Sequence record: PX994957.1
Origin: a phage
DNA length: 64,000 nucleotides
Strand: one strand, 5' to 3'
Shown: piece by piece, positions 5,914 through 58,586 of the stretch
Position numbering within the stretch: the stretch's first letter is position 1
How the letters are laid out: every line of letters begins with the position of its first letter
Made by a program: the position numbers and the translations under genes
Notes under the pieces: generated by a model
The model's database searches: none
What the model saw: the letters and a program-made list of their open reading frames with translations, nothing else
Told to the model about the DNA's origin: nothing

Positions 5914-8091
5914 TTAGGCCGCAAGGGCCTTCATAGTTTTAGCGATTTGGGAAACTTCATCATCACTTAAAGAGTTGCGATATCCGATGAAGTCGGAAAC
6001 AATACGGAATTTCTTGGTAAACTCAGCAACCATTTTATCACTGTTTTTTGAAGCATTATTTGATAATACATCAAAAAGATTAGTTACTGTCCAGATATCA
6101 TGACCGATGGTATCTTTTCCACCATTAAAATATACACCGCGCAATGAACTAACTATATTAGCGAGTCGTGTATATTCTTCAGAAACTTCATCTGTACTGA
6201 AGTACTTCATCATAAAATCTAGCTCAGGATACTTGATAATTTTATCAATATATCGTTGAGCTGAACTTGAATAACCTACATACTTATCATAATCTACATC
6301 ATCAAAAGCATCTACATATAAATCACGCAAAGCTTCAAAAATACATTGGCACTGACCGAGTTCTTTTACCTTTTTCTGTAAAAGCGGACGAATAACATAA
6401 AATTCATTAATGCCAATAAGATTAGCCATACGAATCAAAATATTCATAGATGGATGACAAAGTGATGTAGTACCATCCATAGAGAAAATATCAGAACGAT
6501 GCATATACGCTACATAACCAGTAATTTCATCTGCTTCTGACGTAAGTGTAAATAGTTCCTCTTTTTCCCAGCGCCCATCTTTAATTTCAAATTTAAATGC
6601 TGTAGCAGCTTTAGGACGAGGAGCTTTACTTTTAACTACCTTTGGAATATAACTTTTAACCAAAGCTTCAATTTCTGACAAATAGTGAATGTTAACTTCA
6701 TCACTTTCAAACATCGCCATAATATCAGGGAGTAAATCAATCTGCGATTCTACTTCCGGATTAATAAACAGAAGACGCTCATTGTGATGAATATTCAAAG
6801 TGTTATTAAATTCACTATCATCTAACGCGTGTGCTAATCCACGGACAATATTAACACGATTTTTAATATTATCAATAACGATATTAATTTTTGTTGTATT
6901 AATACCAAACAGACGATAACTTGATGCAACGGCTGAAGTTTCATGACTTTGCTTAATGCGTTTCAGTCGAGGGTCAAGATTTACTTCATACACCACGCCT
7001 GCATTACATAACTTACTGTCAGGTTCAAACATGCTCTGCATCTTCTTATATGACAGATTTTTAGTCGTGAATTTGACTGAATTACTAATCATATAATCTC
7101 GAGCAGAATAGCCCATTTTCATTAACTCGCGATACGTATGGCGAGGAGATGTAGATTCTTTAAATCGTTTTACATCTTCATTAAATGCTTTCTCACTAAG
7201 CTCTTTAACTCGTTCAATAATATTTTTACGAGTACGATCATCCAATGAAAGAGCTTCACGTGATGGAGCAATATCAAGTGAACCCATTGGAAACTTAATG
7301 TAATTCACTTCATTGCGAATGCTTAGCCAGTTACGGTCTCTAATAACACCATCGATAGGATAAACAATACCGCCATAGATAGCATATAATCCACCACGAT
7401 CAGGCCAGTATCTTTCTGGATTTACACCGTAATAATCATCAAAATCCGGAAAATAATCAATTTCACGGTCAAGACCATTAATAATAGCCAAATCTTTGAA
7501 CGGTCGCATGATATAAGAAACTTCATAAGCAAAGTTTCTAAAGTCTTTTTCTTCAACTGGAACTACGATTTCAATACCAGTTTTATCATCTGGACCCATT
7601 TCTTTTACGAATGTAGGTTTAATCTGTGGGCCATCACCATCCATGTAAGCTACATAACCACGAATTTCACCTTTATGATACGAAGTAATACTAAACGTAT
7701 CAGTATAACTAAACGGAGATTTAGAACCTAAACCAAATCCGCCAATGAAATCGTTAGATTCAGCCTTAGATGAACTGAAGTATGAATTATACAAACCAGG
7801 AGAATTATCATCACCCTGAATATCAAAATCACTCATACCCGGACCAAAATCTCGGCAAACAAATCGTGGATCTAAACGTCCAGGAACTTGAATGATAAAT
7901 TTTTCAGGATTTCCATTGAGAGCATGGGCATCAATCATGTTGGTAATCAATTCACGAACAACTGCGCGAATCTTATTTGTATACAAATCAGATGATAAGA
8001 TTTTAAATACTTTAGGAGATGCTGTGATGCTAAATGCTTTTGATTTAGAACCATTACCAAGAATTGTTTCTTTTTCAGTGGTGATAATCAT
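5914..8091 (-). CDS. rIIA: RIIA (GHKL-ATPase-like membrane-associated protein)
   Basis: 725 aa, equal to T4 rIIA; ATG 8091 with SD GAGGAAATTA. Confidence 0.93.
5916..5930 (-). other. rIIA-rIIB intercistronic hairpin
   Basis: AGGCC gcaag GGCCT palindrome between rIIA stop and rIIB SD. Confidence 0.45.
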
Positions 8092-11068: not shown

Positions 11069-11494
11069 TTATTCCTTAAAGTGTGCTTTCAACATCTGAT
11101 ACAAAGACCATGCCTGTTCATTATTTTCAATAGTAACTTTCATGACCGGGAATTCTGTGAAATCTTCTATTTGTTCTTGCTCTTTCTCTTCCTGCTCTTG
11201 CTCTTCAGCTGCCTGGTATGGATTTTCCACTTCATCAAAGAACACAGCTTCACTCGTTGAAAGCCAGATAAAATCTTCATCCAAAATATCTTTACCAGAA
11301 GATAACGCCAATTTTCCACTAGATGTCACAAGTTTAGTAGGACGACCAAGATAGTCAATATCTGTAACTCTAAAAGGTTCCATACCAAGACGTCGTGCAT
11401 AAATTCCGTTTTCAGTATGGTCCTTGATAAAATCTTCTTGAGCTTGTTTATTTTTAAATTGATACCATTTATTAACTTCAAATTTAATAGCCAT
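11069..11494 (-). CDS. goF: GoF-like protein
   Basis: 141 aa from ATG 11494 (SD GGAAGGAAAC), equal to T4 goF length as recalled; position between 39.x ORFs and cef. Confidence 0.6.
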
Positions 11495-12064: not shown

Positions 12065-12088
12065 TAGTTTTATGAAAAAATTTAAACT

Positions 12089-12586
12089 TTATGCACAGCG
12101 AGCTTTGCTATAGTGTTTAATCCAGCTTTCAGGAATGACTTTGTATGTTCCTAAAAATACCGCGTTGTACAGCTTAACACCGTCTTCTACCCACTGATCG
12201 GTAATGTATGCGCACATAGCACGAGTACGGTGTTTTTGAACAACCCCTTCCTCATCTTCAGTAAATTCGAATTCATAAGGAGCAACGAACTTAATAGCCT
12301 GACCGAGTTTCCACTTAAAGTATACACCTACATGCGAAGTATCAATCGTTTCAATTCCTTTAGCAGGAACAGCTTTCAAAAACGCAGATTCAAGAAATTT
12401 CGCACGAACATAGCCAAACTGAGGTTTAGACTTTCCATCTTTAGGAATGATACGCACTTTTACTTCAGAATCTTCATCTTTAACGCCGTGTTTAAGCTGA
12501 ATGCTTACAATTTCGACCAATTTTCCTGCTGCTTTAGAACGGGATTTATCAGATACACGAGCAATTTCACCAATATTAATAATCAT
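12089..12586 (-). CDS. motB: MotB-like protein
   Basis: 165 aa (T4 MotB about 162 aa); position between cef and dexA; shares C-terminal DQW(V/I)EDGV motif with next ORF. Confidence 0.6.
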   Translation of the reverse strand: MIINIGEIARVSDKSRSKAAGKLVEIVSIQLKHGVKDEDSEVKVRIIPKDGKSKPQFGYVRAKFLESAFLKAVPAKGIETIDTSHVGVYFKWKLGQAIKFVAPYEFEFTEDEEGVVQKHRTRAMCAYITDQWVEDGVKLYNAVFLGTYKVIPESWIKHYSKARCA

Positions 12587-15185: not shown

Positions 15186-16505
15186 TCACACATAAAATAC
15201 GTCATAACGACCACGGGTAACACCAACATAAAGAAGCTGCTGAGCTAGTTCAGCATCTGCATAATGAATACAAGGCGTATAAATGAAAGCACGGTCTACA
15301 GACATACCCTGAGCTTTATGGAATGTTGATGCAGGAAGCGCTTTCACTTTACTAAACTGTGATTTAGCATCCCAAAAATCACTCCACGGAGCTTTTCCGC
15401 CTTTATTCCAATTTTTATAAGTTTCTGCCGTTTTACCTAAAAACAGGTTAAACTTATATAGCTCTTCATCAGATGAAATTATTTTAATCTTTTCACGATA
15501 ATATTCATCATCGCCGTAAGTTTCTACTGTTAAATCCCAATGACGAATTAAGTATTCTCCAGGAACACCACGAGCTTTAACAAACGTTGATGTATACTCT
15601 GCTTCTATAATACGAACTAATTGTCCATTATTAAAAATAATTTCTGATACAGGCTTTCCATCAATTTTATATGTTTTAATTAATGGTTCCTGCATTACAA
15701 TAATTTCACCGACAATAAAATCTTTATCAGTTTCAAAAATCTTTTTACGAATAATGCTATTTAACTTATCAACAGATTTATTCGTAAATGCCATTACGCG
15801 ATTTTCAAACAAATCATCTAAAGATTTGACGATTGAAAAATAATTTACCATAAAATCGCGTAAAGCGGTATCACCAGTAAATCCACGTACTCCATGCCCG
15901 TCAACAACTTTATCATAAATCCACTTACCGTTACGAACATCAGTAGCTACATCAATAATAGGAGCATTACTGCGTTTAACTTCAGTAAGTTCACATTGAT
16001 AAAAATCTTTGTGTGTAAAGAATGGACTGATATAAGCAGTATTTTCTCCTGGATCAACAGGTCTAATTTGCTTATTATCACCTATTCCAATTATTGTGCA
16101 CCACGGCGGAATAGTTGAAAGCAGAATTTTAAATAGCTTTCTATCATACATTGACACTTCGTCGCAGATTAATACCCTGCATTTAGCTAAATCTGGTACT
16201 TCCTTCTGTTCAAAAAGAACGTTTTCTTCATACGTAACTGGGTTAATTTTAAGAATACTGTGAATAGTACTCGCTTCTTTCCCCGACAGTTTTGAAAGAA
16301 TCTTTTTAGCTGCATGAGTAGGAGCTGCCAAAATGATACCAGTTTCACCCGTAGATATTAAAGCTTCAATGATGAACTTAGTAAGAGTAGTCTTACCAGT
16401 ACCAGCAGGTCCATTAATAGTTACATGATGTTTCTTTTCTTTAATAGCCCTCATAACGATGTTAAAGGCATTTTTCTGGCCTTCTGTCAAATCATCAAAT
16501 GTCAT
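15186..16505 (-). CDS. dda: Dda SF1 DNA helicase
   Basis: 439 aa, equal to T4 Dda; Walker A GPAGTGKTT; helicase motifs throughout. Confidence 0.93.
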   Translation of the reverse strand: MTFDDLTEGQKNAFNIVMRAIKEKKHHVTINGPAGTGKTTLTKFIIEALISTGETGIILAAPTHAAKKILSKLSGKEASTIHSILKINPVTYEENVLFEQKEVPDLAKCRVLICDEVSMYDRKLFKILLSTIPPWCTIIGIGDNKQIRPVDPGENTAYISPFFTHKDFYQCELTEVKRSNAPIIDVATDVRNGKWIYDKVVDGHGVRGFTGDTALRDFMVNYFSIVKSLDDLFENRVMAFTNKSVDKLNSIIRKKIFETDKDFIVGEIIVMQEPLIKTYKIDGKPVSEIIFNNGQLVRIIEAEYTSTFVKARGVPGEYLIRHWDLTVETYGDDEYYREKIKIISSDEELYKFNLFLGKTAETYKNWNKGGKAPWSDFWDAKSQFSKVKALPASTFHKAQGMSVDRAFIYTPCIHYADAELAQQLLYVGVTRGRYDVFYV

Positions 16506-17677: not shown

Positions 17678-18280
17678 TTATAGATTAAATCCTTCAAAAT
17701 CAAGAGTATAGATAGTGTATGTTGAATACTTTTTATACTCATATCTATCTGCAATTCTAAATACACTTCCAGCTGGTATCATTACTTCTTGTTCATCTGA
17801 AACTAATTCCATATTACGATAACGATGGCTATCCGGAAACTTAAAGTTTGGATTGTATTCTTTACAGCGTAGAGCTTTTATAGCATACTCCTGGAAATTG
17901 AATACCATAGGAGCTTTGAATTCAAAAATAACCTGTGTGTTATACTCTAAACCGGAAGCAAAATGTAGAGCTATATTTTTATCATATGAAGCTGATACTA
18001 CTTTATCAAATGTAATAATATCAATTCCTTGATTTAACACTTGCTTAGTCTCGACTGGAACACCTCTCCAAAGAGGTTTATCGTTTGGTTCCAAACGAGA
18101 TTTGATTATTTCATTTAACCAAGTATGGTCATCTGGTTTGTTGGTAATACAATGAATTAAAAGTTCAATTTCAGATAAATTAAACCCTTCAGAAAGTAAT
18201 TCTTCACGAATAGAAGCACGCACCGATGCATCCATTGATTTTATTTTAAAATCTTTTAGTTGCATTACTGAGTATTTCAT
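17678..18280 (-). CDS. modA: ModA ADP-ribosyltransferase
   Basis: 200 aa, equal to T4 ModA; ART-like R / S-x-S / E-x-E pattern (LWRGV, SAS, EQEVMIP). Confidence 0.75.
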   Translation of the reverse strand: MKYSVMQLKDFKIKSMDASVRASIREELLSEGFNLSEIELLIHCITNKPDDHTWLNEIIKSRLEPNDKPLWRGVPVETKQVLNQGIDIITFDKVVSASYDKNIALHFASGLEYNTQVIFEFKAPMVFNFQEYAIKALRCKEYNPNFKFPDSHRYRNMELVSDEQEVMIPAGSVFRIADRYEYKKYSTYTIYTLDFEGFNL

Positions 18281-19986: not shown

Positions 19987-20455
19987 TCATTTTACCTAAA
20001 ACAATAGTAGGAGCATCGTCAAATTTATGAATTTTTAGCAAATTTGGAGTTAATTTATTCCATAAAGAAGTAATAAAATATGATAGCGCAATTTCTTCCG
20101 CAATTATGAATTTATTTCCCTTATCTCCCTTATCTATTTTCCAGTCATGTACTGAATCATATGAATAGAAGGACAGCGGTTTATTGTTATAAAATGCTTC
20201 ACCAACATCAATATAGTTAGATTTAGTAAATGCTTGAATTGACGTAAATGGAGAATTTTGTACAGTTTCAATAATTCCGATCTTTTTAAGTTTTATTTCA
20301 ACATCTTCTGGAACTGGCATTGAAATAAAATCTTCTACTAGATACATGCTATTGTCATATCTTTTGTCAATCATTACTGCTACAGTAATTGGAACATCCT
20401 TGACAAACGCCATACTAATACTATTAATAAACATTTCAAACAAAATTGCTTCCAT
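19961..20455 (-). CDS. hypothetical protein
   Basis: 164 aa from ATG 20455 with SD GAGGAAAATT; track start is TTG. Confidence 0.55.
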
Positions 20456-25320: not shown

Positions 25321-25350
25321 ACTATACCATAGTCTTGTCAGTTTGTAAAC
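25321..25350 (-). promoter_or_regulatory. T-even early promoter upstream of dmd
   Basis: GTTTAC (25345-25350), 18-nt spacer, TATAGT (25321-25326); dyad CAAGACTA / TAGTCTTG around -10. Confidence 0.5.
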
Positions 25351-26777
25351 TAAAATTTTAATTCATTTGCCAAAGCATCTAACTGAGCTCGAGTGGATTC
25401 ATTTCTTTGATAGCGATTCTGTTCAGCCTGAATCTGTTGTGAACCTGCTACTTCACTCACTTCAGTTGGAGTAGAATCTTGTTCAATTTCTACCCATTTT
25501 TGATTTCCTTTTTGAACACCCATCAAAAACTTATTCCACTTATTCTTATCACCATATCGTGATTTGATTTGCTTAATAAGTTGTTGTTCAGCAGCTGCTA
25601 GCTCCTCGGTTTCAATGACCGCAAGCATAAAATCAGCTGTTGCTGGAAGACCAGCAGATTCTGCAATATCGCTCATGTTAACATCGGAAGAGTCCCAAGC
25701 TTGTTTACCGACCTGTGCTGCAGTCCAAAGAACAGTTTCGGTTTCAACAGCCAGAGCACGCAATTCCTCTGCGATAGCTTTAACAGTTGTGTAACTATTT
25801 TCTGAATAAACTCTAATGCGGCAAGATTTACAAATACCTAGATAGTCGACAATAATGATTGTTGGAACAAAATTCTTCTTGAGCTTCAATTCATTCAAGA
25901 GAGACCTGAATGTGTTAGCATCTGCCCCACCAGTGGGATACTGTTTAACGATTAAACGACCAAGAGTAGATTTCTCACGCCATTTTTCCATTTTTCCTTT
26001 ATACTCAGCGTAAGAAATATGCCCATCATCAATGTCATCAAGAGAAACATCAAGCATATTAGCATCAATACGCTTAGCACAGACTTCTTCTGCCATTTCC
26101 ATGGAAATGTAAAGAACATTATGTCCGAGCTGCAAATAATCTGCTGCCAATGAACAAAGTCCTAATGATTTACCAACGTTAACGCCAGCCATTAAAACGT
26201 TCAGTGTCCCAGTCTCAGCTCCGCCTTTAGTAATTTTGTTTAGAATTCTGAGTTTAAATGGAACCTTACGAGCTTTATTCATATAAGATAGCCAACGTGC
26301 TTCGTAGTCATCCATCCAATCATGACCAACGTAACTATCAAATGAAATTGATAATGCTTGGCGCATGATGTCAGGAATAGCACCAACGTCCGGCATTTTC
26401 TTATTTCGTTTTTCCGGAGGAAGCTCAGCATTAGTTTGAATTTCGATTATTTTAGACGTAGCATTAAACATCGCCCTTTGCTGAACATATTTTTCTGTTT
26501 CTTTTACTAACCAGCTGTGGTCTTCCGGAGAATCAGCTAGTTTTGAAATAAGTGTTTTTACACCAGAATATTCTGTTTCAGTAAATGAACTATTTTCTAA
26601 TGCAACATTTAACGCATTAATAGATGGAACGCTATGGTACTCGTTAACATGAGATTTAATTAATTTGAACGTATTTTTAGCTGGACCACTTTCAAAATAT
26701 TCTGAATCCATATATGGCCAAACTTTTGAAAAATAAGCTTGATCAAATATGAGATGAGAAAGAATAATTTCTACCAC
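25350..26777 (-). CDS. 41: gp41 replicative DNA helicase (DnaB-like)
   Basis: 475 aa, equal to T4 gp41; Walker A GVNVGKS; GTG start behind SD AAGGAG. Confidence 0.93.
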   Translation of the reverse strand: MVEIILSHLIFDQAYFSKVWPYMDSEYFESGPAKNTFKLIKSHVNEYHSVPSINALNVALENSSFTETEYSGVKTLISKLADSPEDHSWLVKETEKYVQQRAMFNATSKIIEIQTNAELPPEKRNKKMPDVGAIPDIMRQALSISFDSYVGHDWMDDYEARWLSYMNKARKVPFKLRILNKITKGGAETGTLNVLMAGVNVGKSLGLCSLAADYLQLGHNVLYISMEMAEEVCAKRIDANMLDVSLDDIDDGHISYAEYKGKMEKWREKSTLGRLIVKQYPTGGADANTFRSLLNELKLKKNFVPTIIIVDYLGICKSCRIRVYSENSYTTVKAIAEELRALAVETETVLWTAAQVGKQAWDSSDVNMSDIAESAGLPATADFMLAVIETEELAAAEQQLIKQIKSRYGDKNKWNKFLMGVQKGNQKWVEIEQDSTPTEVSEVAGSQQIQAEQNRYQRNESTRAQLDALANELKF

Positions 26778-26786
26778 ACTTACTCC

Positions 26787-27131
26787 TTAAAAGAATTTAA
26801 ACTTTTTCTTTGACCTTTTATTAAATGCATCTTGTAGTTGCATTGTAATACATTTTTCTACATGAGGAGCTAACTCAGCTTTTCTTTTTTGGTCAAGAAC
26901 AGCAAAGTCCATTACGACTTTTCCATCAACCCAATCTAATTTTGTCACATACACAATATGTGTAGAACCATCTTCTAGTTTAATGACAATCTCCTGGATA
27001 ACATTTTCCATGGCAGATTTAATTATCTTAAGAGATTCATTAAAAAGACGTTCTTTTCTTTCTTCTTCCCCCTCCGAAGAGGGGGATTCATCGATAATTT
27101 CTAGATCTAAATCTAAATCATCTTTATTCAT
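26787..27131 (-). CDS. 40: gp40 head-vertex assembly chaperone
   Basis: 114 aa from ATG 27131 with SD GGAAGAA (track GTG start gives 120 aa); position between uvsX and 41. Confidence 0.65.
   Translation of the reverse strand: MNKDDLDLDLEIIDESPSSEGEEERKERLFNESLKIIKSAMENVIQEIVIKLEDGSTHIVYVTKLDWVDGKVVMDFAVLDQKRKAELAPHVEKCITMQLQDAFNKRSKKKFKFF
27068..27085 (-). other. GC-rich UUCG-loop hairpin inside the gp40 coding sequence
   Basis: CCCCCTC CGAA GAGGGGG perfect 7-bp G/C stem in an otherwise AT-rich region; encodes SPSSEGEE. Confidence 0.6.
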
Positions 27132-28305
27132 TAAATTCTTCCATATCACTTAACTGCTCGAGGTCAGTTTCTAAATCAGCTGCTGATTTACTTTTACTTT
27201 CTGGAGATTTAAATTTTTCAACCTTTGAGTTAATCAATTCATCAACTTCAGCTTCAACAATTTCATTACTATCAATAGCACCTAACTGATAAGCACGTTT
27301 AATAGCATCTCGGAATGGTTGATGCTTAAATAAAGGACCCCAGAATGTAGTGCAGTTGGTATCTTTTGCACGCCAAGATTTTTCTTCGCGAATCATCTCG
27401 CCGGTTTCTTCGTCAAGAAATTCACGAGCATACCAACCATTCTTAGGTTTTACTACAAATCCTAATTCTAGAGCCATATCTAACAATCCAGAATAAGGAT
27501 CGATACCACCGTCAAATTTAACATCAATAAAGAATTTACTTTTTTCTTTAACGGTACGAGATTTTTCTACATTTAGAACAAATTGATACCCCTGAAGATC
27601 AGAACCATCTTTAATCTGACGCTTACCGATAATGAATACAGTATCAGCCGAATACATTACGCCTGTACCACCTGTCATCACGGTTTTACTAAACATTTCA
27701 ATTGTTTCAATTGTATGGTTAACCGCAACACATGGAATATTTTTAATGCTAAAATAAGGAGTAACAATACGAAATAATGACTTCAGTGATTTAGCACGAG
27801 TCATATCTGCCACAGATTTTTCATTCAAGGCGTCTTCCGTTTCTTTCTTAGAAGCCATATTACCGATTGAGTCGATGAATACAATAACCTTTTCACCACG
27901 CTCAATAGCTTCAAGTTGATTCACCATATCAATTTTCAGCTGTTCAACTGACTGAATTGGCGTATGAATTACTCGTTCCGGGTCAACTCCCATGGATCGC
28001 AAATAAGCTGGAGTAATACCAAATTCGCTATCATAGAATAGACAAACCGCGTCAGGATATTTGTTCAAATATGCCGCAACCATAGTCAAAGACATATTTG
28101 ATTTAAAGTGTTTAGAAGGCCCTGCGAAAATAGTTAAACCAGACTGCATACCGCCATCAATCGCACCAGAAATAGCAATATTCAGCATTGGAATTTTTGT
28201 ACGGATTACATCCTTTTCATTAAAGAATTTAGATGTAGTCAGTTCAGCAGTCATTTTAGAAGTGGAAGCTTTAATCAAACGGGATTTTAAATCTGCAATA
28301 GACAT
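27124..28305 (-). CDS. uvsX: UvsX recombinase (RecA-like)
   Basis: 393 aa (T4 UvsX about 391 aa); Walker A GPSKHFKS; RecA-fold region. Confidence 0.92.
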   Translation of the reverse strand: MSIADLKSRLIKASTSKMTAELTTSKFFNEKDVIRTKIPMLNIAISGAIDGGMQSGLTIFAGPSKHFKSNMSLTMVAAYLNKYPDAVCLFYDSEFGITPAYLRSMGVDPERVIHTPIQSVEQLKIDMVNQLEAIERGEKVIVFIDSIGNMASKKETEDALNEKSVADMTRAKSLKSLFRIVTPYFSIKNIPCVAVNHTIETIEMFSKTVMTGGTGVMYSADTVFIIGKRQIKDGSDLQGYQFVLNVEKSRTVKEKSKFFIDVKFDGGIDPYSGLLDMALELGFVVKPKNGWYAREFLDEETGEMIREEKSWRAKDTNCTTFWGPLFKHQPFRDAIKRAYQLGAIDSNEIVEAEVDELINSKVEKFKSPESKSKSAADLETDLEQLSDMEEFNE

Positions 28306-28384
28306 TCATTTTTTTTCCATAGGCATCATTATATTTTCCTCACTGGTTAAAGATAGAGTAATTATAACACAATAAATTTAGGCA

Positions 28385-29227
28385 TTAATCAACTGCTATT
28401 GGATGAATAGCATTAAACTTATGAAATGCTTCTGATTTTTCTTTACGTGAAACGCACATGCGAAGAACCTTTAATGGCTCGTCTTCTTCACCCAACGATT
28501 TTCGTTTTTCAATATTCGACGTTTTCCAACGAGCTTGCTCTGGAAACTCTCTATTGATTTGCTCAAGCGCTCTATTATGTTTAGAATTACTACGAATTGA
28601 ACTGCACCCGCCAGGAGCTTGTGCTTTTCCAGATACAACCAGATATTTGAACAAGGCCAAATGCGGATAACCTTGATTAATTAAATTGAGAAATGCATAC
28701 ATATCTTCGCACAAATCAATTTTTCCATACCCAATTTGTTCTGTCGTAAGTTTTCCAAGGTCATACCATGTATTCGTGAATCCATATGAATTTTCACGAT
28801 AATTACCCCAAGATGAAGTAATTTTAAAAATAGGTAGACGAGCATGACCATGATAATACCCGCAATCCATGGCATCTTCGACGTATTGAATCAATTCATA
28901 GAACTGTTCATGAGTCAATTGATTAACTTTATCCACACAACGACGGTCATCTCTTTTTCGCATTGAACTCATACGAATAGTAGTATCATCGTCAATCATC
29001 CAGATTCGTTGACCTGCATACATATCAGTAATTGCTTTACGAGTACCGGCAATTCCGTTTACATCATCAGGAATAGTTATAATTTTAGCTCTAGACCCAT
29101 AGGCATCATAATAAGCTTTTTCTTCATGTTCACGCACTACAATATGGGGTTCATAATCAGTCGGAAACATATCAAGGGCAGAAACTGCCCCGACACGCTG
29201 ATAACTTGGAATTACGAATTGAATCAT
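28385..29227 (-). CDS. GT-A-like glycosyltransferase at the beta-gt position; candidate beta-alpha glucosyltransferase
   Basis: 280 aa from ATG 29227 (ATGA overlap with gene 42 stop); DxD-like MIDDDTTI; too short for T4 beta-gt (351 aa, GT-B). Confidence 0.6.
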   Translation of the reverse strand: MIQFVIPSYQRVGAVSALDMFPTDYEPHIVVREHEEKAYYDAYGSRAKIITIPDDVNGIAGTRKAITDMYAGQRIWMIDDDTTIRMSSMRKRDDRRCVDKVNQLTHEQFYELIQYVEDAMDCGYYHGHARLPIFKITSSWGNYRENSYGFTNTWYDLGKLTTEQIGYGKIDLCEDMYAFLNLINQGYPHLALFKYLVVSGKAQAPGGCSSIRSNSKHNRALEQINREFPEQARWKTSNIEKRKSLGEEDEPLKVLRMCVSRKEKSEAFHKFNAIHPIAVD

Positions 29228-29964
29228 TTCCACTCACCTTTATAGTCTTTTTTCACAATATGAGTTTCGCCAGTATTCCACCAATGATCAACCAAGTAAA
29301 AATGACGAGAATATACATGAAGACTTCCGACATTCCATATAATAGAACCTGCTTTATACTGACGAGTTGAATCGCCGGCATTCAAATCAGATACTAATTT
29401 ATCTAATACGTATTTTTGCCATGCATAATCATTACGGAATCCGAAGACTACGTCATTTGAGCGCATGCTTACTACTGCATTGACTTTCTTATCACGAATC
29501 AGGTACTGTACTGTATTAGTACACATGAAATCTGACATGCCATCTTTATTGTAGTCAAATTGCATGGATGGACGAGTATAAATCATGATACCACGTCGAG
29601 AATCAGGATTTTGACCAAGTTCAGCTAAACACATATCATACTGAGCATAGTTATCTTCTGACCAAATAGCCCAACCATAATTCGAGTTAATTTCGCCTTT
29701 AGAAGATGCTACCTGCTGCCAAATCTTTGGTGTTTCACCTGGAATATCTTTAACAAACAAGCTCTTAGATTTATACCATTCAAGTTCGCGCTGAATGTAT
29801 TCATCATTAAGAGCGCCAAAAATAAACGGTTCATCTGCTACAAATGATGCGCCAATAATTTCAATAGTTTTAACACCAGTTTTATCAACTACGAAATCTT
29901 TTTCCTTTAATGCAGTTCCCAAATAAAAACGGATTTCTTCAACTGTCATAGAGTCATTAATCAT
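29224..29964 (-). CDS. 42: gp42 dCMP hydroxymethylase
   Basis: 246 aa, equal to T4 gp42; thymidylate-synthase-like fold. Confidence 0.92.
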   Translation of the reverse strand: MINDSMTVEEIRFYLGTALKEKDFVVDKTGVKTIEIIGASFVADEPFIFGALNDEYIQRELEWYKSKSLFVKDIPGETPKIWQQVASSKGEINSNYGWAIWSEDNYAQYDMCLAELGQNPDSRRGIMIYTRPSMQFDYNKDGMSDFMCTNTVQYLIRDKKVNAVVSMRSNDVVFGFRNDYAWQKYVLDKLVSDLNAGDSTRQYKAGSIIWNVGSLHVYSRHFYLVDHWWNTGETHIVKKDYKGEWK

Positions 29965-34555: not shown

Positions 34556-35119
34556 TTACCATTCCAATGCTAGTTTTTTGAGTTGTTTCTGTTCTTTTAC
34601 GTTCTTAGTCACTTCTTTCAAAAAATCATCCGTGACTAAACCTTTTAGTTCTTTTAATACTAAAGGAAGTTTTCCATTTTTAGTAAGAATTGATTTATAG
34701 TTAATTGCATCATTTGTATTAACTTGATAACGCTTAGCAAGTAACTTAATAATCAATACTTCGGTGGAATCTTCAACTAGTTTTGCCCATTTACCATATC
34801 TTTTACCACGAGGAACTGCAGCCATTAGATAATTAAAATGGGCTTCATCACTTAAGCCTGATCCAATTAAATTCATAGCATATACAGCTGGCATGCACTC
34901 TGGAAATTGTGATAATGCATTTTCAACCATGAATTTTGAATAATCTTTTTGAGCAATAGAGCATTTAGTTTTATTATTAATAGCTCCAATTATTTCAAAA
35001 AACTCATTTTCAGCTTTTTCTTTAAAAGTATCAGCAGAAGATTGGACAGCTGTCCAATCTTTAGAATACCAAGCAACTTGATGCTCGTTTAATTGAATAT
35101 CATCTTCAAATAAGCTCAT
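34556..35119 (-). CDS. 62: gp62 clamp-loader subunit
   Basis: 187 aa from ATG 35119, equal to T4 gp62; track start is GTG. Confidence 0.85.
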
Positions 35120-37516: not shown

Positions 37517-39199
37517 TTAAACCATTACAGTAAATCGACCAACTTTCTTCATTTGAAGGTGCTGACCATATGCTTGTGGGTCATGGTCTCTATGCGAAAT
37601 AACAAAAACATTAGTATTTTTTAAACTATCTAAAATAGTTGAAATAGCTTTTACACCTTCAACATCGGTCGCTGAATCAAAAACTTCATCAAGAATTAGT
37701 GTGTTTATTTTAACACCTGAAACTTTTTCAGCAATATCACGCCAAGTAAATAAAAGAGCAATATCAATTCGTGCTTTTTCACCTTGACTGAATGAAGCAT
37801 AACTAAAATCTTCACGACCACGGGATTTAATTGTCTCATTAAATTCTTCATCTAATGTAAACACATAATCCGCTTCCATTATTTTAAGATAATGGTTAAT
37901 CTGCTTATTAAATAATGGAATGTACTTTTTAATAATAGCACCTTTAATACCAGAATCTTTGAGCATATCAGTCAAAATTCCTCGGTGGTATTTTTCCATT
38001 ACTAAATTAGTTTTTGTCTTAACAATTTTATCAAGTTCTTCTTGAAGCAATGCTATTTCATCAGCATGGTCAATAAACTCAGAAGATGCTTTTTCTATAG
38101 CCGCTTTAACTTTTTTAGCTTTATCTACCGTCGTGATTAGAGATTGCTTTTTATTGCGAATATCATTTGCCAACGACTGCTGGGTTTTAATATTATCTCG
38201 GTATTCATCAACAAGAACTTTTAAATTATCACGGTGTGTTGAAAGCTGTTCAAATGAATGCGTACATTCAGAAACTTTATCTTTAATTTTAGAAACAACT
38301 TTATCACCGGAACTTAATTGTGACAAACAGGTTGGACATAATCCACCTTCGTGATACATATTAATGACTTTATTATACGAGTCAATTTTTGATTTAATTA
38401 AAACTGCTTCTTGACCGATTTTATTAAATGCATCAGTCGGGTCTTCATCCAAAACAATATTAACTAATCTTTCATTAGCTTCTTCTATTTCCGATTTTAG
38501 CGTTCTAGCTTCTTTTGCCAAATCATCATACATATTCTGCAGACGAGTAAGGTTGTCACCAGACAATTTTTTCTGGCGTTCAACATTATCATTATATATT
38601 TTAATTTGTTGGATAATACTATCTTTTTTAACATCAAGCACTTGGTTTTGTGAATTTAATTCACGTATTAGTGCTTTATTAAGCTTATCCATTTCAGCTA
38701 ATGTTCCTACCTCAAGCAGGTCTTCCACAAGCTTTCTTCGTGCAGGGGTCGACAAACCCATGAAAGGGGTATACCCTGCTGTACCAAGGACAACAATCTG
38801 CTTGAAACTGGCATATGACATTCCGATAAGCTGTTCAAATTCTGCTTGGAAATCTTTACTGCTGGCAGATTCATTAAGACGTGTACCGTTAACGGTGATT
38901 TCGAAAACGTTTGGTTTTTGTCCTCTTTTGATATAGTACTTTTTCTCATCATATTCCATCCACAGTTCAACTAAAAGTTCTTTCTTATTTGTGCTGTTTA
39001 TTAATTGACCTTTCTTTACATCACGAAATGGCTTACCAAAAAGCCCAAATGTGATGGCTTCTAGCATAGTAGACTTACCGCCGCCATTTCGTCCAGTAAT
39101 AAGAGTTTTTTGAACCTTATCTAATTGAATGTCAATAGGATTTCCACCTACTGACATTATATTTTGATACCTAACTCGGTTTAGTTTAAAATTCTTCAC
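37517..39199 (-). CDS. 46: gp46 recombination nuclease subunit (SbcC/Rad50-like ATPase)
   Basis: 560 aa, equal to T4 gp46; Walker A GRNGGGKST; coiled-coil middle; GTG start behind SD AAAGGAA. Confidence 0.9.
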   Translation of the reverse strand: MKNFKLNRVRYQNIMSVGGNPIDIQLDKVQKTLITGRNGGGKSTMLEAITFGLFGKPFRDVKKGQLINSTNKKELLVELWMEYDEKKYYIKRGQKPNVFEITVNGTRLNESASSKDFQAEFEQLIGMSYASFKQIVVLGTAGYTPFMGLSTPARRKLVEDLLEVGTLAEMDKLNKALIRELNSQNQVLDVKKDSIIQQIKIYNDNVERQKKLSGDNLTRLQNMYDDLAKEARTLKSEIEEANERLVNIVLDEDPTDAFNKIGQEAVLIKSKIDSYNKVINMYHEGGLCPTCLSQLSSGDKVVSKIKDKVSECTHSFEQLSTHRDNLKVLVDEYRDNIKTQQSLANDIRNKKQSLITTVDKAKKVKAAIEKASSEFIDHADEIALLQEELDKIVKTKTNLVMEKYHRGILTDMLKDSGIKGAIIKKYIPLFNKQINHYLKIMEADYVFTLDEEFNETIKSRGREDFSYASFSQGEKARIDIALLFTWRDIAEKVSGVKINTLILDEVFDSATDVEGVKAISTILDSLKNTNVFVISHRDHDPQAYGQHLQMKKVGRFTVMV

Positions 39200-46379: not shown

Positions 46380-46850
46380 TTAATCATGTTTCCACACCCC
46401 ATCGGTATTTGACCAAAGTCGCTGATTATCTGATCCTCGCCACAGCTTTTTGGTCGGAAGATTTTTCTCATACTTCCCATCAATAATAACATCAACATAT
46501 TTAAGCATTTCTAGTTGTTTAATATCTTCAAACTTATATCCTGTCCACAACCAAATGCTTTTACTGGGATAAAGATTTTTTACTGTTTGAACAATGCAAT
46601 GAATCACGTCTCTGTTATCAGGATAAAGAGGGTCTCCTCCAGTTATAGTTAATCCTTCTATATAATCATTATTCAAACATTCAATTAATTGTTCCAGTGT
46701 TTCACCAGTGAATGGAACGCCATTTCTAGCATTCCATGTTGATTTATTATAACACCCTTCGCATTTATGCAAACAACCTGTAACGAAAAGAACGACCCTG
46801 CAACCAGGGCCATTAACAAAATCGCAAGGATAAAATCTATCATAATTCAT
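46380..46850 (-). CDS. nrdG: NrdG anaerobic ribonucleotide reductase activase (radical SAM)
   Basis: 156 aa, equal to T4 NrdG; Cys cluster CLHKCEGC; ATG overlaps nrdD stop. Confidence 0.88.
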   Translation of the reverse strand: MNYDRFYPCDFVNGPGCRVVLFVTGCLHKCEGCYNKSTWNARNGVPFTGETLEQLIECLNNDYIEGLTITGGDPLYPDNRDVIHCIVQTVKNLYPSKSIWLWTGYKFEDIKQLEMLKYVDVIIDGKYEKNLPTKKLWRGSDNQRLWSNTDGVWKHD

Positions 46851-57572: not shown

Positions 57573-58586
57573 TCATTTATAATAACTTCGGTGGTTTTCA
57601 AGATAAACCTTCTCAAGGAAGTCATCCCAGAAACCCATGTCTACTTTTTGCTGCATACCGTTCTTAGAAGCTTCAGTAGATGCTGCTTCTACTTGATCGA
57701 CCACATCTTCCAAAAACTCTTGAACTGTTTTAAATGGATGTTTACCCAACTTCACGTCGAGAATAAATGGAGCATCTTGAAGTGGATAAACCAAGTCACC
57801 AGTTTTGTAAATTTCCAATAGTTGAAGTCCACCACGGCAAGCATGGCTCAGAGCTTTCCAGTCAATGCCCTCATTCGCTTCAGCCTTACGAGCACGTTCG
57901 CCGTATTCAGCATCTAATTTGTTAAGTGACTGCTTAAGCTCAATAAGAGAAAGTGTTGTCTGATATTTACGACCCAACACAGTGTAAAACGTTTGTGGAC
58001 CTGTTTTCTCATGATTATGGAATACCCATTCACAGAACTCGTTTTCAGGGAGTCTGTGTTTGATATCTTCTATCTTAGTACGACGAAGTCTATCAGGGAT
58101 TCCTTCTTGATAGTCGACCCACTGGTCAGGGATTTGATTAACTACTTTCAATACATCACGTAATGCGGCCAAACGAGAACCCTTGACACCGTATTTAGAA
58201 GCTTGCTTGCGGACATATCCTAAATAGGATTTCATGTTAGTTGTATAAAACCGTGAACGATTGTCTTGGATAAATTTCCATACATCAGGCAAATCAGATT
58301 TAACCACTAGTTCAGGCGGAGTGTGAAGCATATCCAATGCTACAGTTTCACCATCTGCTGCTAATTTAAAGAAATACTTAAGACTGTATAGTTCATGGTC
58401 AATATCATCTTTAGTGTTTTTAGATGATGTGTTGTTAGTGTTTTTACTCATATGCTCTTTAACATTTCCGATAAGAATATCGCGAGCACGAGGAACAAAG
58501 ATTTCTTTAAAATCTACATCAGATTCTGGAGTAGAAGTTCCATAAAGATGACTACCAAAATAGCTTTTCATTACTGTTTTCATCAT
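57573..58586 (-). CDS. nucleotidyltransferase-fold protein
   Basis: 337 aa; N-terminal FGSHLYGTSTPESDVDF fits Pol-beta NTase GS-x10-DxD signature with a later candidate catalytic Asp (VALDMLH). Confidence 0.55.
   Translation of the reverse strand: MMKTVMKSYFGSHLYGTSTPESDVDFKEIFVPRARDILIGNVKEHMSKNTNNTSSKNTKDDIDHELYSLKYFFKLAADGETVALDMLHTPPELVVKSDLPDVWKFIQDNRSRFYTTNMKSYLGYVRKQASKYGVKGSRLAALRDVLKVVNQIPDQWVDYQEGIPDRLRRTKIEDIKHRLPENEFCEWVFHNHEKTGPQTFYTVLGRKYQTTLSLIELKQSLNKLDAEYGERARKAEANEGIDWKALSHACRGGLQLLEIYKTGDLVYPLQDAPFILDVKLGKHPFKTVQEFLEDVVDQVEAASTEASKNGMQQKVDMGFWDDFLEKVYLENHRSYYK

Follow-up and report, generated by a model that had tools for sequence, protein, structure and literature searches.

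This locus raises the question of why a very stable RNA hairpin is placed inside the coding sequence of gene 40, which is flanked by uvsX, encoding a recombinase, and by gene 41, encoding a helicase, and whether the hairpin serves the RNA, the protein or the DNA. The phage, whose 64,000 nt stretch of DNA analyzed here (PX994957.1) is called the window, is T4-type and belongs to Tequatrovirus; over gene 40 its identity was 99.5-99.7% with wV7 and Sa45lw and 96% with T4. Our answer is that the hairpin is probably a 3'-end-forming or stabilising element of the uvsX transcripts, which limits the RNA passing into genes 40 and 41.

Hairpin in gene 40 and its genomic setting

The three genes are on the - strand. 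uvsX, encoding the RecA-like recombinase, is located at 27124..28305 with its stop codon at 27124-27126, and gene 41, encoding the replicative helicase with a GTG start, at 25350..26777; both were identified from the ORFs and the T4 and wV7 annotations. Gene 40 (26787..27131) encodes the head vertex assembly chaperone of 114 aa, which was identified from its ORF, the same annotations and phrog_999 (E = 2e-43). Its start was corrected from GTG 27149 to the ATG at 27131-27129, which, in agreement with the T4 annotation, overlaps the uvsX stop; gene 40 and the 3' end of uvsX share 8 nt. Because gene 40 begins inside the end of uvsX in this tight packing, the element is written into the N-terminal extension of gp40. 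The extension is variable: in the protein alignment, distant relatives either differ over the N-terminal ~28 residues or lack them. The order uvsX-40-41 is kept on either side of the hairpin in most genera sampled.

Transcription toward the hairpin may start from a probable middle promoter, PuvsX (28361..28388, - strand), a candidate assigned by inspection with a MotA-box-like TAATGCCTAAA, then ~11 nt and a perfect -10 TATAAT at 28366-28361. PuvsX has been described with a perfect -10 element (PMC2988021), and the transcript from the candidate to the hairpin would measure ~1.3 kb. The late promoter motif TATAAATA was not found near gene 40. Upstream of uvsX, the region between 42 and uvsX (28385-29233, - strand) encodes a T2/T6-type beta-glucosyl-HMC-alpha-glucosyltransferase (phrog_842, E = 2e-89) and not the T4 beta-glucosyltransferase, and segA, the homing endonuclease gene upstream of uvsX in T4, is absent.

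On the transcribed strand (- strand, coding for uvsX, 40 and 41), window positions 27067-27086 form the hairpin UCCCCCUC-UUCG-GAGGGGGA, with the 5' arm at 27086-27079, the loop at 27078-27075 and the 3' arm at 27074-27067, as given by the sequence and by folding. The + strand of the same 20 nt reads T CCCCCTC CGAA GAGGGGG A. The initial annotation had described a perfect 7-bp G/C hairpin with a UUCG loop inside gene 40. A G/C-rich hairpin with a 7-bp core is indeed present there, but the core is composed of six G-C pairs and one U-A pair, a flanking U-A pair makes the stem 8 bp, and the UUCG tetraloop, closed by a C-G pair (cUUCGg), belongs to the - strand while the + strand gives CGAA. Folding of the 20-mer alone predicted -15.9 kcal/mol, and folding within a 30-nt context -16.7 kcal/mol; the hairpin persisted in both the MFE and the centroid folds of a 401-nt context. 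With the start of gene 40 at ATG 27131, as in the T4 annotation, the hairpin spans codons 16-22 (SPSSEGE), which is nt 46-65 of 345. The distance from the uvsX stop codon to its start is 37 nt.

The tail 3' of the stem (27040..27066, - strand), which begins with AGAAGAAAGAAAAGAACG, is purine-rich on reading the sequence. The part following the stem, AGAAGAAAGAAAAGAA, encodes EEERKE; no U-run is found directly 3' of the stem, and the terminator scan did not call the gene 40 hairpin. A rut-like C-rich, G-poor stretch was not found on the sense strand over the final ~200 nt of uvsX and the whole of gene 40, where the C/G ratio was <=1.0 in all 78-nt windows, this test being a composition proxy only. 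Rfam search of 26500-27600 gave no family match. The sole hit, RefA1, was sub-threshold (18.5 bits against a gathering score of 94) and was rejected as a chance match.

The gene 40 hairpin exceeds the chance expectation. Perfect hairpins whose loop is 4 nt and whose stem has >=7 bp with >=5 G-C pairs were observed 7 times in the window, where first-order Markov simulations predicted 0.08; with >=8 bp and >=6 G-C pairs, three were observed against an expectation of 0. CTTCGG was present 32 times in the window versus 12.0 expected (2.7-fold), a count reached by 0/100 shuffles. Perfect UUCG-loop hairpins with a stem of at least 6 bp numbered 11, all of them on the - (transcribed) strand. Local hairpins of <= -12 kcal/mol on the transcribed strand numbered 21 in the 64 kb, and the gene 40 one is the strongest inside an ORF. 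All other UUCG-loop hairpins at this threshold on the transcribed strand of the window lie outside ORFs of at least 70 aa, while the gene 40 one is within a CDS.

Tuerk et al. are said to have reported C(UUCG)G tetraloop hairpins of T4 mRNA in PNAS in 1988. Hairpins of this type, whose tetraloop is exceptionally stable, were first recognised in T4 mRNA (PMC4371310). The window shares with them the cUUCGg loop and its C-G closing pair in the 11 perfect hairpins counted above. The gene 40 hairpin differs from them by lying in a CDS, and the loop itself is unconserved in relatives.

Selection on the stem as sense-strand RNA

A stem inside a gene could have no RNA function at all, being either a by-product of Pro-Ser...Glu-Gly codons (CCN UCN / GAR GGN) or a feature of the DNA, such as a cruciform, a recombination or cassette boundary or a nuclease site. 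The peptide indeed accounts for part of the pairing, since 6/8 bp are set by codon positions one and two of S-P-S...E-G-E. However, the synonymous choices go far beyond it. When the protein was held constant and the synonymous codons of the first 40 codons of gene 40 were redrawn from the window's own usage, 0/300 recodings reached -16.7 kcal/mol; their mean of -7.5 kcal/mol, at which the recoded versions still fold, counts for a by-product of the peptide, and the best was -14.5. The stem codons TCC CCC TCT TCG GAG GGG GAA account for 5.1%, 2.7%, 35%, 5.4%, 15%, 6.8% and 85% of their synonymous sets in window usage, five of them being rare. The same recoding test was applied to 13 lineages (the window and 12 relatives), and only 0-5/300 recodings were as stable in 12/13 of them; TG1 gave 24/300.

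The stem is clearly under selection as a sense-strand RNA structure, and base-pair changes among relatives agree with it. RB69 (Mosigvirus) has the same SPSSEGE and differs by two synonymous changes in the stem, CCC->CCT (CCU) and GAG->GAA, which are mutually paired, so that a wobble-wobble pair co-varies; in the rest of gene 40, 40% of the residues conserved between the window and RB69 have an altered codon. The initial annotation had looked to relatives with the same peptide for synonymous changes that destroy the stem, and the opposite was seen. Jiaodavirus has a second C-G->U-A swap in the stem, and a compensatory U-A->C-G change distinguishes Kanagawavirus from Dhakavirus. In the alignment of seven sequences, double compensatory changes were found at two base pairs and the inner 7 pairs were never broken. 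This formal pair count was restricted to the seven pyrimidine-first sequences, as MAFFT misaligned the purine-first stems; the remaining hairpin variants were compared by inspection and folding. Both compensatory changes and a stability beyond the protein requirement, which characterize conserved functional RNA structures, are thus found in this stem.

In several genera of Tevenvirinae a strong hairpin recurs at 41-56 nt of gene 40, with different arms, loop and peptide. S16 and Moon-like phages carry CCCCCUC-UCAG-GAGGGGG, Kp_5N (Jiaodavirus) carries UCUCCCUC-GGAA-GAGGGAGA, and MY02 (Marfavirus) carries GCUCCCCUU-GAAG-AAGGGGAGU encoding EAPLEEGE. The hairpin of RZ (Gaprivervirus), GCGGAGGGAGC-UAAG-GCUCCUUCUGU with peptide AEGAKAPS, reached -18.2 to -19.8 kcal/mol, and that of TG1 (Tegunavirus) is GAGGCUCC-GAAA-GGAGCUUC with peptide NEAPKGAS. 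QL01 (Dhakavirus) has GAGGGUC-CUAGU-GACCCUC encoding EEGPSDPR, to which Entb45 (Kanagawavirus) is compensatory with GAGGGCC-CUAGU-GGCCCUC; the sequence L038 has AGAGGGUCA-CUA-UGACCCUCU and encodes EEGHYDPL where QL01 encodes EEGPSDPR. The arm polarity is reversed in some genera and the hairpin is kept there despite the different peptides, which also counts against a by-product of the codons. Because the loops vary among relatives (UUUG, UCAG, GGAA, GAAG, UAAG, GAAA, CUAGU or CUA), it is the stable stem that is conserved and not the UUCG loop. In a Moon-like contig, IMGVR_UViG_2974573174_000001 (L014 ~1495-1520), the 5' arm is CCCCUC for CCCCCUC; the 1-nt deletion would frameshift gene 40 and leaves a 6-bp stem. 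The deletion could be genuine or could come from a sequencing error in the homopolymer.

Polymorphism within Tequatrovirus is less informative. Gene 40 has 19 variable sites in 345 nt and none in the 20-nt hairpin, where ~1.1 would be expected, so the lack of stem polymorphism is not significant alone and agrees with an absence of RNA function as well. With a 50-nt query around the stem, 383 of ~500 Tequatrovirus records were identical, and the sampled variants differ in the flanks only.

Strand specificity separates RNA from DNA. The sense and antisense energies were -18.2 vs -8.8 kcal/mol in RZ and -13.0 vs -8.2 kcal/mol in TG1, owing to G-U pairs. Because the sense RNA is far stabler than the antisense in these phages, the hairpin is a feature at the RNA level and not a DNA palindrome. 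The suggestion of the initial annotation that it might be the remnant of a cassette boundary was rejected because the flanking gene order uvsX-40-41 is conserved, the stem is actively maintained by compensatory changes, and the G-U pairs in relatives point to RNA and not to DNA. Coincidence of the peptide and DNA cruciform are largely refuted by the recoding test, the covariation and the strand-specific stability, and we give hardly any credence to a hairpin without RNA function.

Stem-loop mapped in T4 and the fate of uvsX transcripts

T4 (NC_000866.4, L016) carries the identical 20-nt UCCCCCUCUUCGGAGGGGGA at gene 40 offset 45. Kim et al. 2025, from the laboratory of Hinton, built a reporter whose leader is the 358-nt stretch preceding T4 gene 41 (PMC12152347). 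The legend of Fig. 5 in that paper, citing Hinton 1989, places an in vivo RNA 3' end of T4 immediately downstream of a stem-loop within this 358-nt region (PMC12152347); the 1989 work, J Biol Chem 264:14432 and 14440, is represented here as it is cited and redrawn there. In the window, the gene 40 hairpin is the only one of <= -11 kcal/mol between the uvsX stop and the gene 41 start (358 nt). Because the identical hairpin is present in T4 and is the only strong one in the 358 nt, we identified it with the published stem-loop: the gene 40 hairpin is very probably the structure mapped in T4 beside the in vivo RNA end between uvsX and 41, and we infer the exact match to the drawing in that legend from its uniqueness as a strong local hairpin. 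The T4 stem-loop and the window hairpin share the site (uvsX stop to gene 41 start, 358 nt), the 20-nt sequence and a goF homologue elsewhere in the genome; the window is a different Tequatrovirus. By homology with T4, the RNA 3' end of the window phage is expected in the first few nt of 27040-27066. So the element is very probably already known in T4, and of a known kind, an mRNA end or stability signal inside a CDS.

The work on T4, as far as it is summarized in PMC12152347, connects this site with host Rho. More RNA ends at the T4 site in rho(nusD) hosts and gene 41 mRNA is lowered, and GoF(D25Y) restores RNA extension into T4 gene 41 (PMC12152347). The effect of GoF(D25Y) is presented there as post-transcriptional, with a longer RNA half-life that is strongest with the full 358-nt leader (PMC12152347). 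The nusD effect is now viewed as one on RNA protection and not as extra termination (Hinton 2010 review, PMC2988021). The element is also the site behind an old puzzle, the failure of T4 on rho(nusD) hosts and its rescue by goF. Two proposals of the initial annotation agree with these data: an internal RNA processing or stability site fits the RNA-level selection and the in vivo 3' end cited for T4 (PMC12152347), and an attenuator between uvsX and 40-41 fits the same selection together with the rise of T4 RNA ends and the drop of gene 41 mRNA under rho(nusD). A goF homologue, encoding an mRNA metabolism modulator of 141 aa, is located at window 11072-11494 (- strand). It has Asp at residue 25, the residue changed in the T4 D25Y mutant of goF that, in the account of PMC12152347, alters RNA extension past the gene 40 stem-loop.

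The hairpin exists, it is selected on the sense strand and its position is conserved, and we propose the following role for it. The hairpin would fold in the uvsX-40-41 sense mRNA ~37 nt past the uvsX stop and set a stable 3' end. Most likely the stem blocks 3'->5' exonucleases (PNPase, RNase II), and it would be a barrier rather than a site of true termination; RNA terminated or cut farther downstream would be trimmed back to the stem base. A hairpin-induced pause or leaky termination may contribute. In consequence uvsX mRNA would accumulate and only a fraction would continue intact into 40 and the helicase gene 41. The element would then be an attenuator or differential-stability signal, with setting of the uvsX:41 ratio as its presumed purpose, and it would mark the split between the abundant recombinase UvsX and the essential replicative helicase gp41. 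The stretch of N-terminal peptide in gp40 would be shaped by the stem.

REP and intercistronic 3' stem-loops stop PNPase and RNase II, so that genes of one operon are expressed to different extents. The gene 40 hairpin shares with these 3' stabilisers a stable stem after an abundantly needed gene and before lower-need genes, and the T4 site, in the accounts available, shares the RNA 3' end at the stem base and the post-transcriptional effects on half-life. The known stabilisers are intercistronic, whereas the gene 40 hairpin is embedded in the CDS of the next gene. For T4, no nuclease has been assigned (PMC2988021).

The main rival to a stabilising 3' barrier is a true co-transcriptional attenuator, where polymerase pauses at the hairpin and partly terminates by an intrinsic, Rho- or NusA-dependent route, and where the 3' end is primary and untrimmed. 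The hairpin shares with intrinsic terminators a GC-rich stem of 7-8 bp, a tetraloop and a location shortly past a stop codon. An identical 20-nt hairpin UCCCCCUCUUCGGAGGGGGA is found in Erwinia phage vB_EamM_ChrisDB, an unrelated jumbo phage (NC_031126.1 ~57690-57709; L055 404-423), where it is intergenic, just past the internal head protein gene, and is followed by UUUUACUUUUCUUUUUUU, a long U-run; from its sequence, it looks like a canonical intrinsic terminator. The positional equivalent in ECD7 likewise has the canonical form of a stem with a U-run. The increase seen at this 3' end with rho(nusD) hosts was read in early work as termination, as retold in PMC12152347 and PMC2988021, and in several relatives a short UUU (a Phe codon) is present just past the stem. 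On the other hand, the T4-type tail of the window is without a U-run, the terminator scan did not call it, and gene 40 is without a rut-like C-rich stretch; termination at the window stem, if any, would be poor or depend on a factor. Later studies point to a post-transcriptional cause: Rop rescues growth, the mutant Rho showed no increased termination in vitro, and GoF(D25Y) raises RNA half-life (PMC12152347, PMC2988021). Primary attenuation is thus unlikely in our judgement, though it deserves more weight than the other rivals.

Distant relatives in which gp40 is without the N-terminal extension have no hairpin inside gene 40. In ECD7 (Krischvirus; L026 ~542-597), which is one of them, the 55-nt spacer between uvsX and gene 40 holds AAAGGGGC-UACGU-GCCCCUUUUU, by its sequence a textbook terminator-like stem with a U-run and a predicted intrinsic terminator. 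In Aeromonas phage AP1 a stem and a U-rich tail directly precede gene 40. Where gp40 is short, the stem is thus replaced by an intergenic terminator-like hairpin, and these positional equivalents, like the use of the identical stem as a terminator-like element in ChrisDB, support the proposed 3' element of uvsX. The ECD7 and AP1 hairpins bear also on a role in translation, where the hairpin would slow gene 40 ribosomes at codons 16-22 and so affect the gp40 level, membrane targeting or downstream coupling, without serving uvsX RNA. Such a role would agree with the place of the hairpin within the gene 40 ORF, at a distance from the start codon (41-56 nt) that several genera conserve, and with the annotation of gp40 as membrane-associated. 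However, these two hairpins lie in an untranslated spacer 5' of the gene 40 start and cannot pause elongating ribosomes, and the placement past a stop codon recurs at five other junctions with unrelated downstream genes. The feature mapped in T4 is, in the legend cited above, an RNA 3' end and not a translational effect. We consider a translational role very improbable.

Some observations count against the preferred reading, a 3' end or stability element of uvsX transcripts. Ribosomes translating gene 40 must melt the stem, and the tail lacks the U-tract and the region the rut-like stretch. Acinetobacter phage Maestro (L023 ~850-875) has no hairpin in the 5' part of gene 40; a cUUCGg hairpin, GGUCC-UUCG-GGGCC in a longer stem of -13.5 kcal/mol, is located after it at the gene 40/41 junction, and the break point of uvsX-40-41 may have shifted 3' of gene 40 in this lineage. 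SdyM006 has no equivalent hairpin, and the upstream gene there is a homing endonuclease and not uvsX.

Conservation of the stem across genera, by compensatory and even peptide-changing substitutions, gives evidence of function independent of the T4 experiments. The comparison yields natural variants for tests of mechanism and no new kind of element; covariation across genera together with peptide remodelling is a useful but modest addition to the known T4 element.

Hairpins past stop codons at other genes

The placement of the gene 40 hairpin is not unique. Counted on the annotation of wV7, with which the window is collinear, strong intragenic hairpins (<= -11 kcal/mol) number 15, and 6 of them begin at +30 to +60 of a CDS and 26-61 nt past the preceding stop (binomial P = 8e-4). 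They belong to nrdG, 46, 62, imm.1, the beta-alpha-glucosyltransferase gene and 40, and the three strongest hairpins are among them. In each case the downstream CDS abuts or overlaps the preceding gene. These hairpins are located at window 46790-46819, 39127-39156, 35037-35066, 29168-29197 and 27067-27086 (- strand), and at 317-342, 7980-8008, 12078-12097, 16441-16468, 17966-17995 and 20075-20094 of the sequence L052. This pattern of hairpins past stop codons at other genes also counts for a 3' element of uvsX transcripts.

Genomes as compact as these may generally place the 3' hairpin of an upstream gene in the next ORF. A wider reading, which is possible but which we hold only tentatively, is that the gene 40 hairpin is one case of a genome-wide T4-type design. 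The first 30-80 nt of an overlapping gene would hold the 3'-end or stability hairpin of the gene before it, ribosomes on that downstream gene would melt the hairpin and so gate RNA survival or read-through, and the downstream N-terminal peptide would be a passenger. The gp40 extension would then have arisen by growth of the ORF across an ancestral intergenic terminator of the ECD7 type. The spacer hairpin of ECD7 suggests such an upstream extension of the T4-type gene 40 ORF, and the enrichment at +30 to +60 and the way the peptide changes around an unchanging stem fit the design without proving it. The nrdG hairpin (-18.7 kcal/mol) carries a UUUUCGUU tail.
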